Positions 18,490 through 64,000 of a stretch of DNA of 64,000 nt are shown in pieces. Both the position numbers and the translations under genes were made by a program. The notes below the pieces were generated by a model, which was not told the origin of the DNA, made no database searches, and was given only the letters and a program-made list of their open reading frames with translations. The stretch lies in NCBI RefSeq assembly GCF_030384885.1, contig NZ_CP128613.1, one strand, 5' to 3'. Each line of letters opens with the position of its first letter. Position 1 is the stretch's first letter. The stretch is from Escherichia coli (GTDB lineage: Bacteria; Pseudomonadota; Gammaproteobacteria; Enterobacterales; Enterobacteriaceae).

Positions 18490-19100
18490 TTAAGTGAGTA
18501 GGCCACCGGAACCTCCCCGACAGCCTCTCGCAGAACCGTACGTGAAACTCTCGCTTCATACGGCTCCCGTCAGGCAAACGCGCTTCCTGGTCCTGCTTTC
18601 CAGTGGGCAAACAACTCCGGCTTCTCTTTTGACAGCCTTTCCATTAGCTGACACGCCTTCGTCTTTCTATACCGCAGGGTTTTATATTTCTTTCTCGCCC
18701 ACGCAATCAGCGTCAGATTAATATATCTGCATACTTTCTTCATCGCTGATTTGTGGTATCTCGCGTAATAATTCAGCCACCCCAATATTATCGGATTCAG
18801 CCACTTCGCAATATCTTCGAGACTCATCTCCACCCTGCGTCTGATCCACAGTTTCCTGAGTTTTCCAATCATGCCTTCGGGTTTACTCATCTCACTGTAT
18901 CTCACATAGGATCAGATCTCGTCTGATCGTTCCCCCTGCGCTCACTACCATGGCTCTTTACCACAGCAGCCGGGGTTGTTTGGGACCGACTTCCGACAGC
19001 AGATCCCGGTGGGCCTGCCACCATCTCTTCACAAGCTTATGCTTATTACATGCAAAACGTCCCGTTTTGCATCTTTGTGCCTACGGCACACCGTGATCTT
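18490..19100 (-). mobile_element. 5'-truncated group II intron remnant (maturase C-terminus plus RNA domains V and VI)
   Basis: ORF 18570..18905 carries a maturase-like motif (WLNPIILGWLNYYARY); downstream on the same strand, about 18532-18566, is GAGCCGTATGAAGCGAGAGTTTCACGTACGGTTCTG, which folds as a domain-V-like hairpin. Confidence 0.6.
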
Positions 19101-19720: not shown

Positions 19721-20275
19721 TTAATTACTCCCTTGCCTGATAATTGTAACTCCATTCCCTTTAGCTTTGGGATTATATTTTAGATAGGTGTTATTTGGTG
19801 TTCCCAAGTAACTACTGTATTCTTTTTTTCCCATTCCATTCATATAAGAATTCGTTAAATCTTTGCTTGAAAAATTTAGACTATCATAAACATCATTTTC
19901 TTTTGTTACTTTATTTCCTTTATCGTCAGAGTAAAAACCGTGAGTGTGATAATCGCCTACTCTCTCTGAACCTTCAGGGCATTTTATATTTCGCAAGTCT
20001 ACACTATCATTATCATTTGAACTTATCGGATTCATGGGGAAATATTCACCTTGCTTCTTACATATTAGTCCACCATATTCTTTATTCTCGTTAATTGATT
20101 CTCCATTACACATTGCCAATGCAAATATTCCAATATCATCTATATTTTTTGATTTAAATTCATATAATCCTAATGGATCCATGCCATTCACCGGGCTCAG
20201 CGGATATGTATACAGGTTCCATCCCCCCTTCAGCCCAATCGGATCCTGAGTGATATACCGCCCCTGTAACCGTCC
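19721..20275 (-). CDS. Rhs C-terminal tip: end of Rhs core (DPxGL motif) plus variable toxin domain
   Basis: reading frame encodes ...[35 protein letters not shown] followed by about 145 aa of low-GC sequence with conserved Cys/His (GDYHTHG); DPxGL marks the core/toxin boundary in Rhs proteins; no in-frame ATG at the 5' end. Confidence 0.6.
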
Positions 20276-20823: not shown

Positions 20824-21075
<252 letters not shown>

Positions 21076-21079
21076 CTAA

Positions 21080-23437
<2,358 letters not shown>

Positions 23438-25686: not shown

Positions 25687-25749
25687 GCATTATGCCCCGT
25701 ACTTTTGTACGGGGTTTGTACTCTGTATTCGTAACCAAGGGGTCAGCTC

Positions 25750-26280
25750 GTGACAACTATAGTAAGCGTACGCCGTAACGGCCATGTGGTCATCGCTGGT
25801 GATGGTCAGGCCACGTTGGGCAATACCGTAATGAAAGGTAACGTGAAAAAGGTCCGCCGTCTGTACAACGACAAAGTCATCGCGGGCTTTGCGGGCGGTA
25901 CTGCGGATGCTTTTACGCTGTTCGAACTGTTTGAACGTAAACTGGAAATGCATCAGGGCCATCTGGTCAAAGCCGCCGTTGAGCTGGCAAAAGACTGGCG
26001 TACCGATCGCATGTTACGCAAACTTGAAGCACTGCTGGCAGTCGCGGATGAAACCGCTTCACTGATCATCACCGGTAACGGTGACGTGGTGCAGCCAGAA
26101 AACGATCTTATTGCTATCGGCTCCGGCGGCCCTTACGCCCAGGCTGCGGCGCGCGCGCTGTTAGAAAACACTGAACTAAGCGCCCGTGAAATTGCTGAAA
26201 AGGCGTTGGATATTGCAGGCGACATTTGCATCTATACCAACCATTTCCACACCATCGAAGAATTAAGCTACAAAGCGTAA
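25750..26280 (+). CDS. hslV: ATP-dependent protease subunit HslV
   Basis: 176-aa ORF recognised as HslV (N-terminal Thr after Met). Confidence 0.95.
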
Positions 26281-40382: not shown

Positions 40383-40481
40383 GCCATATGCGGCGCGAAC
40401 GCCTTACACGGCCTACAAAAGTTTGCAAATTCAATAAATTGCAGAATTCATGTAGGCCTGATAAGCGAAGCGCATCAGGCA
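40383..40481. repeat. REP/BIME element between sbp and pfkA
   Basis: GCCATATGCGGCGCGAACGCCTTACACGGCCTAC and TGTAGGCCTGATAAGCGAAGCGCATCAGGCA. Confidence 0.75.
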
Positions 40482-45459: not shown

Positions 45460-45544
<85 letters not shown>

Positions 45545-55872: not shown

Positions 55873-56421
55873 ATGGCTGCTCTTACTGCAAGCTGTATTG
55901 CCTTGAATATTCAGGGCAATAGCGATTATTCCATTCTGAGACAGCTGGCTACAATAGCATGTCAAAATGGTTTCATTACCGATTCTCATACGTTTCTGCA
56001 GACCCTACTGCGACGCGAAAAAATGCACTCCACAGGATTTGGTTCTGGCATTGCCGTACCACACGGTAAAAGAGCCTGCGTTAAACTACCCTTCGTGTTA
56101 TTCGCCCGCAAAGCACAGGCCATTAACTGGAAAGCCAGCGACGGCTAAGGCGAAAACCTGATTGTTAATCGTCTCGCCATCCCACATGGCTGGAGCGAAC
56201 AGGAACGCCGTTTTCGTGGATTTTTTATTACCCTCGCCCAACCGCTCGAGGTGAATAACGAAGTCATTAACCATGTGTTGATCGCCTGTGCCGCCGCTGA
56301 TGCGCGCCACGAGTTGAAAATATTCAGCTCTCTGGCAAGCGTACTATGTACGTATCCGGCGGAGACTATTGCCGGGCTAACGGGATATGAAGGGTGTATA
56401 GCGTTACTTCGTCAGGAGTGA
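55873..56421 (+). pseudogene. frvA: frvA-like PTS EIIA (fructose-type) remnant with in-frame TAA at 56146-56148
   Basis: first 91 codons contain the EIIA phospho-His motif GSGIAVPHGK; after the stop the same frame stays open to about 56421 with a second IPHG-like motif; expected neighbours frvB/frvX/frvR not found before yiiG. Confidence 0.5.
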
Positions 56422-56522: not shown

Positions 56523-57578
56523 TTAACGCAGGCGATTATAATCATCGACCATTTCGTTGTACTCACGTAATGCTCTCGGGAAAGAGTCGTCGACCATCCA
56601 ACTTGTGTTTGCATCCTGAAGTTGCTCTTTATCCCAGTCAGAATACGGAACTTTATCTCTGACGCGGCGAACATATTTTTTAGCCTCGAGTTGATACTGG
56701 TCTGCCGAATTAATGAACGAGAAATTCATACCGCCTTTATCCGCTTCTTTGGCCTGCGCCACCAGCGTTTCCAGTTCAGAGACTTTCTTCATTGCCGCAT
56801 CAACATCAAACTTCTCTTGCGAAATCAGGTTATTAATTTGTTTCGCTGAAATCATGACTGCCAGGGAGTAGTAGTGGAATGTTTTTCCTTCTGTTTCTTC
56901 AATATTTTTCAGTTCCGCAAGCTGACGCTTATCGTTAATTTCCTGAATCGCCGCATGATAAGATTCTGCTACAGGTTCAAAGGCTTCAAGATTTTTTAAG
57001 AATGTCTGGTGCAGCGTTTTCCCTTTCGCAAACGCATCGTCTTTATAATTTTCCTGGGTGTAATATTTATCCATTTCGTTAATGGTATTACCCAACGCCA
57101 CGGCAGCATCAATATAACTCACCGCCACGCCATCAATAGGTTGCAGCGCAGGCGTTAACGCCACAGCACTTTTTACGCCTTTTTCACACTCAGCGAGGTT
57201 GGATTCACTAATACCGTAGATACCATAAACAGTACGCTCTTCACCGGTAGGGCCCTGTTTAAAATCTTTCAGCCAGTCAGCATAACGCGCCAGACTGCTC
57301 TGTACAGGGATCTGTAACTTGTTGTAGCACTTGATATAGACATCCATTTTTTCGTCGAAAACCGCTTGTTCATCGACCACCGGTTGAGCAGGCGTTTCAG
57401 GTTTAACTTCTGCTTTTGCAACGGGAGCTTCAGCAGGTTTCGCTTCAGGAGCTGGTGCGGCAGGTTGACTATTGGCAGGCGGGGGCGTTTCTGTTTCGGA
57501 TTTTTTATCGTCACAACCCGTGAGACCGAGGGCCATTATGGCGACTATAATAGCGGAAGATAATAAATTCCTTTTCAT
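56523..57578 (-). CDS. yiiG: lipoprotein YiiG
   Basis: 351-aa ORF with lipoprotein signal (LTGCDDKK) and Pro/Ala-rich linker; recognised as YiiG. Confidence 0.85.
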   Translation of the reverse strand: MKRNLLSSAIIVAIMALGLTGCDDKKSETETPPPANSQPAAPAPEAKPAEAPVAKAEVKPETPAQPVVDEQAVFDEKMDVYIKCYNKLQIPVQSSLARYADWLKDFKQGPTGEERTVYGIYGISESNLAECEKGVKSAVALTPALQPIDGVAVSYIDAAVALGNTINEMDKYYTQENYKDDAFAKGKTLHQTFLKNLEAFEPVAESYHAAIQEINDKRQLAELKNIEETEGKTFHYYSLAVMISAKQINNLISQEKFDVDAAMKKVSELETLVAQAKEADKGGMNFSFINSADQYQLEAKKYVRRVRDKVPYSDWDKEQLQDANTSWMVDDSFPRALREYNEMVDDYNRLR

Positions 57579-57788: not shown

Positions 57789-60095
57789 CTACATCCCGTA
57801 GCGTTCGGCAATAGTGGCATGTTTCTCTTCATTCGCCCCGGCTTCTTTGGCGAGACGCCACCAGCACAACGGATGTTCCCAGTCAGCGGTCAATTCGTGC
57901 AAGGTCTTATCGATATCACCTTTAGAAATTGAACGCGGCGCACTGATAACAAAGTAGAATGCGGGAAGTGGCTGCGCATCTTCACCCTGATGACTGTCCG
58001 TTAACGTATAGTCGTCATTACTGTTGCTCCAGTAGTACCAGTTTCGTTCACGGAGCGCCTCACGGAAAGTATTAAACTCTTCTTCACCAGGCATGACACC
58101 TTCGCAGAACCAGGACTCGCCGTATTCGGTCGGGATAATGGTGTTCAGGCACCCATAAAGCGGAGTGAAATTCTTCCGTTCTTCCTCATCCTCTGGTTGG
58201 GTGTTCAATATTTCTGCATCGAATACCACAACTTCATCAACATGTTGCGGATAATCGGTCCGGTAAGTTGGCTCAATGATCCTTGCTGTTACCGGCCCAA
58301 TACGTTGAGCATAGTAATAGCGGTATTCATAATTTTCCCGGAAGCGGATGTTTAACAGCCCCCATTTTTCGTCAATAAAACCTTCGCCTTCCGTGAGCTC
58401 GATTTCCAGTTCAGCAGCAATAGCACGAACCAAATCCCATTGTTGCAGGATGCTGGCGGTCGCCATGATATCCCACTGGAGATTGCGAATATCTTCTTCA
58501 CGGCTAATCATCAGTTGCTGCAATTGTTGTAAATAATCCAGCTGTCGATCCCAGGCTTCCTGTTTTTGTGCTGCCCAAGAGCACATGCGATAAACGCCAA
58601 CCCACTCACGCCCTTTTTCGTGTTGCAGCAACTGTTGCCCAATCGACTCCAGTTCACTCCAGTCTTCCTGTTGGTTGAGCACTCGCGCACGGAACCACAA
58701 GGCCATATGTAGCAGCCCCGCCTGTTCATACTGCTTCGCCAGGTGCTCAATGGTTTGCAGATCGTCACGGTGGAGCAATAAATCCAACAGATCGAAGCAA
58801 AGACCATTATCTTCCTGGATGTGGCTTTCGACGTAGCGTTGCAGAAGTTCAATCGACTCATCAATCGCATTACAGGCGTTTAACGCATTGACCAGTTTGC
58901 CCAGCAATTCCGCATCATCTGGCGCGTTCAGGTAAGCGCGGCGGAATGTTTCGACGTCTTTTTCTGGATCTGGTTGCGTTTCTTCATCGCTATTTTCAGG
59001 TACTTCTACAACCGGACGAGCAAGCAACTCTGCTTCTTTGGCGGCGATTTTTTCACTCAGTTCGAGAAACTCACGATCAACCCCCAGTAACACGCGTAAT
59101 TTTGGCATGTGTCGCTGGGCCAGTTTCATCGCTATTTTGGCAACCCAGACGGATTCACGCTCCAGCGCCAGGGTAATTTGCAGTTTCGCCAGATCAACCA
59201 CTTTGCGGTGCGCTCCGGCCTGCGAGCGGTGCTCCAGCATTTTTTGGATGATGCGCGCCAGTTGCCAGTTGTTTCTTTGTGGATGACGGGGAAGTAACAC
59301 AGTAATGATTTTCAGCCATGACCCCCATGAATGGGGAGTCAGATCTGACCAACGCGGTAATTCCTCCCAGACTTCTTCGTCCTGCCCGCATAACGCCATG
59401 ATGTACAGTTTTTTGAGGTGATTACTAATGCGGTCGCGGCCCCAGTAATCATTGGCTTCTGTCAGCTCATCAATCAGTATGCGTGCTTCATCATAACGCT
59501 GAAGTTCAATCAGAATATCGGCACGAGTATAAAGTAATGCATCAATATCATCTTCCCCGGCTGCTTTAACTGCGTCGATTTGTCGATCCAGATAAGCCAA
59601 TGCCTCCTCTATTCTTTTGGAATCTATCAGTGCACTGGCATATTCAGTGGACAAACACTGAAAACAGCTCCAGGTCGGATCAATCCGCGCGATGGTTTCT
59701 TCACATACCGCCATACGTTCATTCGCCCAGCCAGGTGCATCAATATTTTCGTAGCAGGCGGATAAATCCTGGGTAACGCAGATAGATTGTGGGCAATCTT
59801 TTGTCTCTTCCCGGTGCGCTTTTTCAAACAGCGCCACTACGTCAGGCAGTACTTTTTCACCTTCTTCGCGGTTAGTCAGGCGATGGCGCATTTCCCAGTG
59901 ACCAATAAAAATCTCCAGCCACGGATTTTTTGCCACCTGGGTAAGTGCTTTTACTTCAGGTAACAGCGAATCGCACTTTTCCATTTGCAGGTGCATAACG
60001 CCTTCCGAATAATCATCGATAAGTTGCGGAATATATTCCTGCCCGGCATCGCGTAACTCCTTAGTATATTTGTGATACCACTCCCATATATCCAT
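57789..60095 (-). CDS. hypothetical 768-aa helical protein, translationally coupled partner of the Hsp90-like ATPase
   Basis: large acidic, predicted mostly alpha-helical protein with no motif I recognise; ATG lies 1 nt after the upstream stop with an AAGGAA RBS inside the upstream gene. Confidence 0.6.
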   Translation of the reverse strand: MDIWEWYHKYTKELRDAGQEYIPQLIDDYSEGVMHLQMEKCDSLLPEVKALTQVAKNPWLEIFIGHWEMRHRLTNREEGEKVLPDVVALFEKAHREETKDCPQSICVTQDLSACYENIDAPGWANERMAVCEETIARIDPTWSCFQCLSTEYASALIDSKRIEEALAYLDRQIDAVKAAGEDDIDALLYTRADILIELQRYDEARILIDELTEANDYWGRDRISNHLKKLYIMALCGQDEEVWEELPRWSDLTPHSWGSWLKIITVLLPRHPQRNNWQLARIIQKMLEHRSQAGAHRKVVDLAKLQITLALERESVWVAKIAMKLAQRHMPKLRVLLGVDREFLELSEKIAAKEAELLARPVVEVPENSDEETQPDPEKDVETFRRAYLNAPDDAELLGKLVNALNACNAIDESIELLQRYVESHIQEDNGLCFDLLDLLLHRDDLQTIEHLAKQYEQAGLLHMALWFRARVLNQQEDWSELESIGQQLLQHEKGREWVGVYRMCSWAAQKQEAWDRQLDYLQQLQQLMISREEDIRNLQWDIMATASILQQWDLVRAIAAELEIELTEGEGFIDEKWGLLNIRFRENYEYRYYYAQRIGPVTARIIEPTYRTDYPQHVDEVVVFDAEILNTQPEDEEERKNFTPLYGCLNTIIPTEYGESWFCEGVMPGEEEFNTFREALRERNWYYWSNSNDDYTLTDSHQGEDAQPLPAFYFVISAPRSISKGDIDKTLHELTADWEHPLCWWRLAKEAGANEEKHATIAERYGM

Positions 60096-60096
60096 T

Positions 60097-61932
60097 TTAT
60101 TTTCCTTGATTAATTAAGACAGGAATAACCTGAGTAAAATCTTCCAGTGCCTGATGTAAATCCCACTGCTGTTCTTTATTACCACTGGAGCACAAAATCA
60201 CTTTCAGCGATTTTAATAACCGTAATGCTGCCGCTGGCTGTTGATGGTGTTGTAATGCCGTCACCAGTTGCATGACACAGGGGTTATTAAGATTGATATA
60301 CAGACTTGAAGTTTTAGTCTTTTGGATTTGCGAGGTAAATTGCCGCGCCAGCATTAACGCTGCGGTGCTGATGCGTTTATCTGCGTCATCCTGTTCGAGA
60401 ATTTGTTTTAATTCTGCTTCGCGGTCTGGCGTGACCACGAGCGGTAAAACCGCTGGTTCGAAGCGGGAGATAATTAATTGCTCGCCGTCGCAAAGATGCT
60501 CTTCCAGATAAGCAACCTGCTCTTCAGGTAATTCTGCCAGGCTGAACAACTGCTCATTACCCGTTTGCGTACCGACTTCGATAATCCGGCAGTGATATAA
60601 CAGCGCCCAACGACGTAAAAATGGCACCACCGCATAACGATCGCCACGGGCTACGGGCCGTTGCAGAATATGAAACAACATCTCTTCAAAACCGCCGTCG
60701 CGGCTTAACAGAATATGAATGCTGTTATTAACGCGTAAATCCTTCGCCAGCAACGCCCCTTTTGACGTTGGCACCTGCAAGCGATCTTTGAGCAAATCAA
60801 ACAGACGGTCATCACATAATGCCGCACCGAGCAACGCTTCGTTGTGGCGCATTAATACACGCCGCCAGATTTCTGGCTGATTTTGTGCGAGATCGGACAA
60901 ACCAGAAATCAGCGCCTCTTTTAACGCCTCCTGCACCGCAACCCAGGTTTCGTCCCGCTGGAGATCTTCCCGGCTCGCCGTAGGCGTTAGTTTCGATGAC
61001 TCAATCACGCCGCCAATAAATCCGGCCCAGGGAGGTAACAACTCACGCGCTTCATCATCCAGTAACATACCGCGCAAAAACAGCGACAGGTTGCGGTTAT
61101 CGCTGGTGCCGTAGGTTGCGCCATCCTGAATCCATAAAATCCCGACCGCATCGCTCATACCCGCTGGCACCACCGGAATGGTGCAAATCGGTTCAAAGGA
61201 GGATTCAAACTGGGCGGCAAAGGCGAGATTTTTACGCTGCACCAGCGCGCGGTGTATGGTTACGCCTTCGGGGGCAACTTCACGCCACGGTGGTTGAAGT
61301 TTATTTACCGGCTCGCTGGCATCGCCGACATAGACCGGTTCGTGCAGCAATATGCAGTAGCGGGAAAGAACGCGGTTCAGCAGATTATTACTCGCCAGAT
61401 GGCTGTACTCTTCTTTGAGCGTCAGAATCACCTGCGTTCCCGGCGCCGAGGACTGATGCGGCGTAACGGTATATTTTTGCCCGTCGGTAGAGTGGTATTT
61501 CCAGCTCTGATCCGGCGTTTGCCAGGATGTGGTCAACACCGTGACCTCTTTCGCCAACACAAAGGCCGACAAAAAACCGAGGCCGAACATACCAATTAAA
61601 CCGGTGTTGTCATCCTGCTGGCGCAACATTCGGGTATAACCCACGCCCACTGTCGCCAGGAAGCCGTGAATTTCGCTTTCTGTCAGACCCGCACCGGTAT
61701 CGGTAATGGTGATGGTGGACTTCGCCACGTCTGCCACTACACGAATTTGGTTATCCTTTGGCGCATCGGGCTGCTCAATCCTGCGGCGAACGATCGCATC
61801 ATGGCCGTTCTGCACCAGCTCGCGCACGGCAACTACGGGAGTGGAGTAAAGATGCTTACTGAGCACCTCAATTAAACCGTTTAAATTAACTTCTGTAGAA
61901 TATGAACTGCCAGGTAACTGTAATGTACTCAT
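60097..61932 (-). CDS. Hsp90/HtpG-like GHKL (Bergerat-fold) ATPase family protein
   Basis: 611-aa ORF; GHKL motifs ELVQNGHDA (E-x3-N-x2-D), ITDTGAGLT (DxGxG), GMFGLGFLSAF (GxxGxG), in the order and spacing seen in HtpG; not the canonical htpG. Confidence 0.7.
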   Translation of the reverse strand: MSTLQLPGSSYSTEVNLNGLIEVLSKHLYSTPVVAVRELVQNGHDAIVRRRIEQPDAPKDNQIRVVADVAKSTITITDTGAGLTESEIHGFLATVGVGYTRMLRQQDDNTGLIGMFGLGFLSAFVLAKEVTVLTTSWQTPDQSWKYHSTDGQKYTVTPHQSSAPGTQVILTLKEEYSHLASNNLLNRVLSRYCILLHEPVYVGDASEPVNKLQPPWREVAPEGVTIHRALVQRKNLAFAAQFESSFEPICTIPVVPAGMSDAVGILWIQDGATYGTSDNRNLSLFLRGMLLDDEARELLPPWAGFIGGVIESSKLTPTASREDLQRDETWVAVQEALKEALISGLSDLAQNQPEIWRRVLMRHNEALLGAALCDDRLFDLLKDRLQVPTSKGALLAKDLRVNNSIHILLSRDGGFEEMLFHILQRPVARGDRYAVVPFLRRWALLYHCRIIEVGTQTGNEQLFSLAELPEEQVAYLEEHLCDGEQLIISRFEPAVLPLVVTPDREAELKQILEQDDADKRISTAALMLARQFTSQIQKTKTSSLYINLNNPCVMQLVTALQHHQQPAAALRLLKSLKVILCSSGNKEQQWDLHQALEDFTQVIPVLINQGK

Positions 61933-62243: not shown

Positions 62244-63080
62244 TTAATTATGAATCAAACGCTGCGGATGGGTATAAACCGTTGCCCGACCCGGCTTACA
62301 AAAGCCCACCAGCGTCAAATTACAGCGCTCAGCCACTTCTACGGCAAGCGTGGTCGCGGCAGACACCGCAAACAAAATTTCTACGCCGCACATCGCTGAC
62401 TTTTGCACCATTTCATAACTGGCACGACTGGAAACCAGCACCGCACCTTGATGCCAGCTTTCCCCTTCTTGTGACCGGCGGCCTAACAGTTTATCCAGCG
62501 CCACATGGCGACCCACGTCTTCATGCCCGCCTACCAGTTCGCCAGATGGCAACATCCAGGCAGCGGCGTGAGTACAACCAGTCAGTTGCCCCACTGGCTG
62601 GAAATCATTGAGATGGCGTAATGCATCATCCAGTTTGTTGAGATCAAATGTCTGAGTGAACGGCAGCGGCTGCACCGGTTTACCGATGTCATTAAGTTGC
62701 TCCACGCCGCACACGCCACATCCCGTACGTCCCGCCAGTGCCCGACGACGCTCCTTCAACCCCATAAAGCGGCGGCTGGAAAGCTCAATTTGCACTTCCA
62801 GACCATTACAGGAAGGAACGACATCCATGCCAAAGATATCGCGCGGACTTTCGATAATCCCCTCGGAAAGCGAAAAACCGAGCGCAAAGTATTCAAGGTC
62901 TTTGGGCGACGCCATCATCACCACATGCGAAATGCCGTTGTAGACCAGCGCAACGGGAACCTCTTCCGCCACCTCATCTAACCGTGGGTGTTGTAAATCG
63001 TCACGCCGCCATAACTCAATTTGACGAACACCTGTGACATTTGTCACATTTTTGATTTCTTTTTGCTGTGTTTTTTTCAC
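62244..63080 (-). CDS. fdhD: formate dehydrogenase accessory sulfurtransferase FdhD
   Basis: 278-aa ORF recognised as FdhD. Confidence 0.95.
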
Positions 63081-63273
63081 TTTCTATTAACCGGATAAGA
63101 ACACACACACCAACATTATGGTATTCTGTTACAAACCCTTCCTGGATGGAGGGAAATTGAGCCAATTCTGGACCTTTGCGGCCCCTTCCGCAAAGAAAAA
63201 TAACTCCCACTCCCTGCACACGCAGCAAGCGAATGTAAATGGGACGTGACAATGTCGAAACAAGGAGCAATCC

Positions 63274-64000
63274 ATGCAGGTCAGCAGAAGGCAGTTCTTT
63301 AAGATCTGCGCTGGCGGTATGGCAGGCACCACGGCAGCGGCACTGGGTTTTGCACCCAGCGTAGCACTCGCGGAAACCCGGCAGTATAAACTGCTGCGCA
63401 CCCGCGAAACCCGTAATACCTGCACCTATTGTTCCGTAGGCTGTGGGCTGTTGATGTACAGCCTCGGTGACGGAGCAAAAAACGCCAAAGCATCTATCTT
63501 CCATATCGAAGGTGACCCGGATCACCCGGTCAACCGCGGTGCACTTTGTCCGAAAGGCGCTGGCCTGGTGGATTTCATCCACTCCGAAAGCCGTCTGAAG
63601 TTCCCGGAATACCGTGCCCCTGGTTCTGATAAATGGCAGCAAATCAGTTGGGAAGAAGCGTTTGATCGCATCGCCAAATTGATGAAAGAAGACCGCGATG
63701 CTAACTACATTGCGCAAAACGCCGAAGGCGTGACTGTTAACCGCTGGCTCTCCACCGGAATGCTGTGTGCTTCCGCGTCGAGTAACGAAACCGGCTATTT
63801 AACGCAAAAATTCTCCCGCGCGCTGGGTATGCTCGCGGTCGACAACCAGGCGCGTGTCTGACACGGACCAACGGTAGCAAGTCTTGCTCCAACATTTGGT
63901 CGCGGTGCGATGACCAACCACTGGGTCGACATCAAGAACGCCAACCTCGTCGTGGTGATGGGCGGTAACGCCGCTGAAGCTCACCCGGTCGGGTTCCGCT
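63274..64000 (+). CDS. fdoG: formate dehydrogenase-O major subunit (selenocysteine-containing), 5' part; continues past window end
   Basis: Tat signal (RRQFFK); track ORF stops at TGA 63859-63861 but the frame continues as HGPTVASLAPTFGRGAMTNHWVDIKN..., matching FdoG with Sec at codon 196. Confidence 0.9.

Follow-up and report, generated by a model that had tools for sequence, protein, structure and literature searches.

The window, by which the whole analysed stretch of 64,000 nucleotides is meant, ends inside fdoG, the Escherichia coli gene for the catalytic subunit of formate dehydrogenase-O, an enzyme that is bound to the membrane and faces the periplasm. The features of this end of the window and of the regions before it are collected in Table 1. 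The N-terminus of FdoG carries the twin-arginine motif SRRQFFK and aligns with the N-terminus of FdnG in PDB chain 1kqf_A. The signal peptide is presumably cleaved after Ala33, in keeping with FdnG and FdoG in general. In addition to the iron-sulfur domain listed in Table 1, the molybdopterin-oxidoreductase domain PF00384 is matched in the part of FdoG that lies in the window. The Rfam family RF02778 (FdoG1_thermometer) was considered for 63105-63303 (+) and rejected as a thermometer; with 32 bits, the match stays below the gathering score of 50 and aligns well only at the Shine-Dalgarno sequence and the first codons, but not at the upstream helices.

Before fdhD, the minus strand carries an accessory two-gene cassette (57789-61932) between yiiG (56523-57578) and fdhD; K-12 lacks the cassette, and yiiG adjoins fdhD there. 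Of 5426 complete E. coli genomes, 254 have the cassette at a coverage of at least 80% and with 91.7-100% identity; in every case it is a single copy on the chromosome. The TPR-containing protein fell into no family of NCBIfam, PADLOC or PHROGs, and the ATPase reaches 288 bits on NF010683 (“HSP90 family protein”), below its cut-off of 455. Defence families were also considered, and none was assigned, as PADLOC and PHROGs gave weak ATPase-domain similarities only (in PADLOC, TmtA/REase_II for the ATPase). Possibly, the cassette is a module for defence or stress that has yet to be characterised. Further upstream, two annotated fragments are left of the frv (fructose-like PTS) operon at about 55873-56421, the 5' end of frvA and the 3' end of frvR, which points to the loss of frvB, frvX and most of frvR by an internal deletion relative to K-12. 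The Rfam matches to naRNA4, ES036, the ClpQY promoter element and the L31 leader (Table 1) are expected in such a region of E. coli.

Table 1. Coordinates of features in the window (position 1 is the first nucleotide of the window; U17, G23 and U24 are counted from the U of the UGA as position 1).
Feature	Position	Strand	Basis or remark
L31 ribosomal-protein leader upstream of rpmE	21043-21095	-	Gathering-level Rfam match
ClpQY (hslVU) heat-shock promoter element	25695-25752	+	Gathering-level Rfam match
ES036 sRNA	40418-40459	+	Gathering-level Rfam match
naRNA4 (REP-derived nucleoid-associated RNA)	45464-45541	+	Gathering-level Rfam match
TPR-containing protein, 768 aa	57789-60095	-	Cassette gene
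HSP90/GHKL-type ATPase, 611 aa	60097-61932	-	Cassette gene
fdhD, sulfurtransferase needed for formate dehydrogenase activity	62244-63080	-	ORF and RefSeq annotation; divergent from fdoG
fdhD-fdoG divergent intergenic region (promoters, fdoG 5' UTR)	63081-63273		ORF coordinates
fdoG (alpha subunit of formate dehydrogenase-O), 5' part with codons 1-242	63274-64000	+	Gene cut by the window end
Tat (twin-arginine) signal peptide, residues 1-33 (MQVSRRQFFK...VALA)	63274-63372	+	Motif read directly
[4Fe-4S]-binding domain of molybdopterin oxidoreductase, residues 44-103	63403-63582	+	PF04879 Molybdop_Fe4S4, E = 3e-17
SECIS element, limits of Rfam SECIS_3 (RF01989)	63856-63914	+	84.3 bits, all 59 model positions (1-59)
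UGA selenocysteine codon (codon 196)	63859-63861	+	Aligns with X196 of FdnG 1kqf_A
Paired part of the SECIS (lower stem, internal loop, upper stem-loop)	63862-63904	+	MFE folds, pair counts, RNAalifold
SECIS spacer, UGA to upper stem-loop	63862-63872	+	11 nt
Upper stem-loop (predicted SelB-binding minihelix) GGUAGCAAGUCUUGCUCC	63873-63890	+	Positions 15-32
Bulged U17	63875	+	
Loop bases G23 and U24	63881-63882	+	

Of 5426 complete E. coli genomes, 5425 match the last kilobase of the window, strain 2013C-4282 (NZ_CP027579.1) with 100% identity. Between positions 20264 and 64000, blastn finds four mismatches to this genome. Collinearity over the whole window is ruled out by 15214 positional mismatches, and near-identity is limited to 20264-64000 (blastn). 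Where the group II intron and Rhs lie, two segments of NZ_CP027579.1 have no counterpart in the window (blastn). The intron RNA domains lie at 18493-19022 on the minus strand (RF01999 D1-D4 at 18905-19022, RF00029 at 18493-18568), and between them stands only an ORF of 111 amino acids (18570-18905); its place is taken in the closest complete genome by ltrA, which encodes a reverse transcriptase/maturase of 440 aa. Relative to that genome, the window lacks 1286 bp of ltrA and 3238 bp of an intron-adjacent Rhs core gene.

The open reading frame that begins at the fdoG start codon (63274..63861) comprises 195 codons and is closed by a TGA as codon 196. As the first-pass annotation had observed, the frame continues past this TGA; up to the end of the window it holds no further stop and reads as the stop symbol followed by HGPTVASLAPTFGRGAMTNHWVDIKNANLVVVMGGNAAEAHPVGFR. 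The open frame is weak proof by itself because 46 stop-free codons arise by chance about once in nine cases ((61/64)^46, approximately 0.11), which is not significant. Sequence identity to the K-12 protein is decisive. The 242 residues of the window are 100% identical to K-12 FdoG (b3894), in agreement with the earlier assignment of the downstream sequence to the FdoG catalytic subunit, and 84.7% identical to FdnG (b1474). Since the window stops at codon 242, the integrity of the gene beyond that point is known from the near-identical genome NZ_CP027579.1 only. There, the coding sequence runs for 3051 nt from the same ATG (3365879-3368929) and comprises 1016 codons, with stops at codon 196 and at the end only, and the full-length protein is 99.8% identical to K-12 FdoG and 77.0% to K-12 FdnG.

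RefSeq/PGAP annotates this full 3051-nt CDS. In all genomes listed, it labels the gene “fdnG, formate dehydrogenase-N subunit alpha”, which would make it that of the nitrate-inducible enzyme. The best NCBIfam model, TIGR01553, likewise bears the name of formate dehydrogenase-N, and the 59-nt SECIS sequence is identical in both paralogues and agrees with either name. The two sets of identities given above nevertheless separate the paralogues clearly, and the neighbours speak for the fdo locus. In NZ_CP027579.1, fdoG is followed by fdoH, fdoI and fdhE with a divergent fdhD ahead of it, which is the arrangement of K-12 b3891-b3895, whereas K-12 fdnG lies between yddG and fdnH. TIGR01553 is a family that takes in both FdnG and FdoG, and the “fdnG” label on the gene at the fdo locus appears to have been inherited from the family name. 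It is thus next to inconceivable that the gene is fdnG; by identity and synteny, the gene at 63274-64000 is unambiguously fdoG.

A TGA that closes a reading frame may simply be a terminator. The gene would then be split or decayed, with an N-terminal fragment of 195 residues and a downstream frame that is either untranslated or separately initiated. Plain ORF calling does halt at 63859-63861, and many deposited entries treat the 195-aa product as a protein of its own. However, an in-frame TGA stands at the same codon 196 in both K-12 fdoG and K-12 fdnG (at codon 140 in fdhF), and the residues HGP(T/S)VA follow it directly in all three genes. Downstream of the TGA, the frame shows 100% conservation and fills out the family profile: the read-through product of the near-identical genome covers positions 1-1009 of the 1009 of TIGR01553 with 1573.8 bits against a cut-off of 814.2, and translation must therefore pass the TGA. 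The 242-aa fragment in the window reaches 378 bits on this model, which suits a fragment that makes up one quarter of FdoG. When FdoG with Cys placed at position 196 was used as the query of a PDB search, codon 196 was aligned with the non-standard residue X196, a selenocysteine, of FdnG 1kqf_A, and other top matches are named [quoted passage not shown]. The peptide that spans this position in FdoG is predicted to be ARV-U-HGPTVASLAPTFGR. A conserved and covarying hairpin follows the TGA, and 111 of 117 evaluable listed matches from many phyla stay in frame past it, as described below. A genuine terminator is accordingly extremely unlikely, and the earlier reading of the TGA as a selenocysteine codon is upheld.

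The first-pass annotation had further predicted a SECIS hairpin downstream of the TGA. The complete Rfam SECIS_3 model matches at 63856-63914 with E = 2e-20 and 84.3 bits, above its gathering score of 63; only seven RNA matches in the whole window, this one included, attain the gathering level. The 50-mer of the element occurs once in the window, with 0 occurrences expected by chance. The fdhF-type family SECIS_2 was rejected for the element, which is assigned to the SECIS_3 type because SECIS_2 scores 28.1 bits, far under its gathering score of 70. In the minimal SECIS of fdhF, the spacing of 11 nt and the bases U17, G23 and U24 have been described, these bases being the SelB contacts (PMC8659212), and the fdoG element matches it in all three bases and in the spacing. 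The range originally given for the recoding site, 63859-63910, covers the UGA and the entire paired part. The proposed folding of the RNA after the TGA also returns the expected hairpin as the ViennaRNA MFE structure. Its stability is unexceptional against dinucleotide shuffles (z = -0.77 for 59 nt and -1.18 for 45 nt), and since these scores are not significant, folding energy was dropped as evidence in favour of the covariance model and covariation.

For the comparative analysis, a scan with GCNCGNGTNTGACAYGGNCC in one genome per species gave at least 120 loci, with 117 evaluable among the matches listed. Among these listed matches, 111 are formate dehydrogenase genes with a frame open past the TGA (101 of FdnG/FdoG type and 10 of FdhF type), and six are chance matches in which no formate dehydrogenase frame continues. 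The organisms represented among the listed matches include Enterobacterales, Pseudomonas, Burkholderiales, Acidobacteria, Actinomycetota and Desulfovibrionaceae. From the listed matches, 68 distinct FdnG/FdoG-type 59-mers were aligned; this alignment is free of any fitting to RNA structure because it is ungapped and in codon register. In the upper helix, 97.7% of the cells are paired and compensatory changes occur in four of seven pairs, and RNAalifold finds the same helix independently. Over the whole SECIS structure, 90% are paired, whereas shifting the 3' partners by one to three columns leaves 27-57%, and all 500 shuffles stay below the observed scores for pairing and for covariation. With 84% of its cells paired, the lower stem is weaker, and its register is ambiguous.

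These data bear on the possibility that the UGA is read through without SelB and SECIS, e.g. by near-cognate tRNA suppression, and that constraint on the protein, at its active-site motif HGPTVASLAPTFGRGAMTN, accounts for the conservation by itself. Since the peptide that follows the UGA shows high conservation, coding alone would be expected to conserve much of the DNA, and the unexceptional folding energy fits this explanation as well. Protein constraint cannot, however, yield the covariation of synonymous third positions. At alignment pair 21/33, both members of which are third codon positions, the 68 sites comprise 51 G-C, 9 A-U, 4 C-G and 2 G-U pairs and 2 unpaired cases; at pair 24/30, again two third positions, they comprise 3 G-C, 41 A-U, 22 C-G and no G-U pairs and 2 unpaired cases. 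Covariation between such positions is beyond what protein coding can link. Where the amino acids themselves change, from Ala-Ser...Ala to Ser-Ser...Gly, pairs 22/32 and 21/33 are kept, with 22/32 going from G-C to U-G. U17, G23 and U24 (U20, G26 and U27 of the alignment) are invariant or at least 90% conserved across the 68 sites. The loop base U24 falls on a wobble position and is invariant in all 68 distinct sequences, GC-rich genomes included, the codon always being AGT, GGT or GCT. Together with a covariance model score above the gathering score and the presence of the selenocysteine machinery throughout the species, these observations make readthrough independent of SelB and SECIS very unlikely, and decoding through the SelB/SECIS route is the preferred reading.

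The lower stem shows a difference in register. In the register of Rfam, A8/C48 and A12/G44 of the E. coli sequence are mismatched; shifted by one, the sequence pairs well and forms G11-C46, A12-U45, C13-G44 and C14-G43 with G47 bulged. The shifted register is the one found in the MFE fold, with -13.8 kcal/mol against -7.2 kcal/mol for the Rfam register. Within the alignment, the Rfam register suits the sequences that carry C12/C45, and the shifted register suits those that carry A12/U45 or U12/A45. Unpaired bases in the lower region of the SECIS have been reported to cut read-through by only about 25% (PMC8659212). The register is a detail that presents no problem for the SECIS assignment.

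The sequence around the element is also strongly conserved between paralogues and genera. K-12 fdoG and fdnG share 75% DNA identity, and their longest identical run is 71 nt, followed by one of 36 nt. The run of 71 nt (gene positions 583-653, window 63856-63926) begins 3 nt before the TGA and covers the SECIS. The exact 59-mer of the window is present at 16 or more loci, in Providencia, Photorhabdus, Yersinia, Citrobacter, Enterobacter, Klebsiella, Superficieibacter, E. albertii and others. The run could result from selection on the RNA or from gene conversion between fdoG and fdnG, and the identity across genera favours selection. The element of 59-71 nt is thus frozen at all its synonymous sites, between the paralogues as well as among enterobacterial families. 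A tentative suggestion, for which the odds are rather against than in favour, is that the lower stem of Enterobacterales fdoG and fdnG uses the shifted register, and that the frozen element reflects a constraint beyond SelB binding, for example unfolding or refolding kinetics at the ribosome entrance, or recurrent fdoG-fdnG gene conversion.

The probability that the UGA at codon 196 is decoded as selenocysteine via the SelB/SECIS route, giving a FdoG of 1016 residues, is put at about 0.97. The steps of actual selenocysteine insertion, SelB binding and molybdenum ligation in FdoG are taken from established knowledge. The C-terminal domain of SelB would bind the upper stem-loop of fdoG and bring GTP and Sec-tRNA(Sec), the tRNA being the product of selC, which would first be charged with serine and then converted by SelA with selenophosphate derived from SelD. 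With the UGA in the ribosomal A site, the tethered SelB complex would compete with release factor 2 and deliver Sec-tRNA(Sec), so that the ribosome would proceed past the UGA to the full-length protein. Sec196 would then serve as a ligand of Mo in the bis-MGD cofactor, as in the 77%-identical FdnG (1KQF). At the species level, the machinery is near-universal in E. coli: selC (tRNA-Sec) is present in 5424 and selA-selB in 5425 of the 5426 complete genomes. In the 64-kb window itself, no tRNA gene, no tRNA-Sec and no sel genes were found.

The significance of the site is limited to annotation. The TGA is the known Sec196 codon of E. coli fdoG with its SECIS, and the textbook picture of selenocysteine codons and SECIS elements in E. 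coli formate dehydrogenases is unchanged here. When the TGA is taken as a stop, however, a respiratory enzyme of 1016 residues is split into a stub of 195 residues and an orphan C-terminal ORF. The first-pass annotation had expected that an automated annotator would truncate the gene; this holds for generic gene callers, whose product is deposited, but not for RefSeq/PGAP, which reads through the TGA. The truncation error is widespread in public protein collections. The exact truncated product of 195 amino acids (window 63274-63858) is found on at least 1000 contigs in a public protein collection, and the 90%-identity cluster of truncated FdoG/FdnG products comprises 3382 members, of which nearly all have 195 residues and some (Cronobacter, Hafnia) are misnamed “sulfate ABC transporter substrate-binding protein”.

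Three known systems are closest to the site described here, and the alignment to fdoG and fdnG that had been proposed as a check agrees with the initial expectation for both genes. K-12 fdoG (b3894) is the same in the 242 residues of the window, in the TGA and the following 57 nt, and in its neighbourhood. It shows no difference at the recoding site, and overall 2.4% of nucleotides and 0.2% of residues differ; the two-gene insertion between fdhD and yiiG is present in the studied strain but not in K-12. The second system, fdnG (b1474; FdnG 1KQF, SeCys196), has in common with fdoG the selenocysteine at codon 196, the 71-nt run over TGA and SECIS, and the SECIS_3 family. It is a paralogue at another locus (77% protein and 75% DNA identity), and its regulation and neighbours differ. 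The third is the SECIS of fdhF, the experimentally dissected prototype of the SECIS_2 type, in which the UGA, the 11-nt spacer, the bulged U17 and the loop bases G23 and U24 are as in fdoG. Its upper stem is UGCA/UGCA with the loop GGUC, whereas that of fdoG is AGCA(A)/(U)UGCU with the loop (A)GUC(U), and its lower-stem sequence is unlike that of fdoG. The fdhF enzyme is a cytoplasmic protein of 715 amino acids that is 26-34% identical to FdoG.
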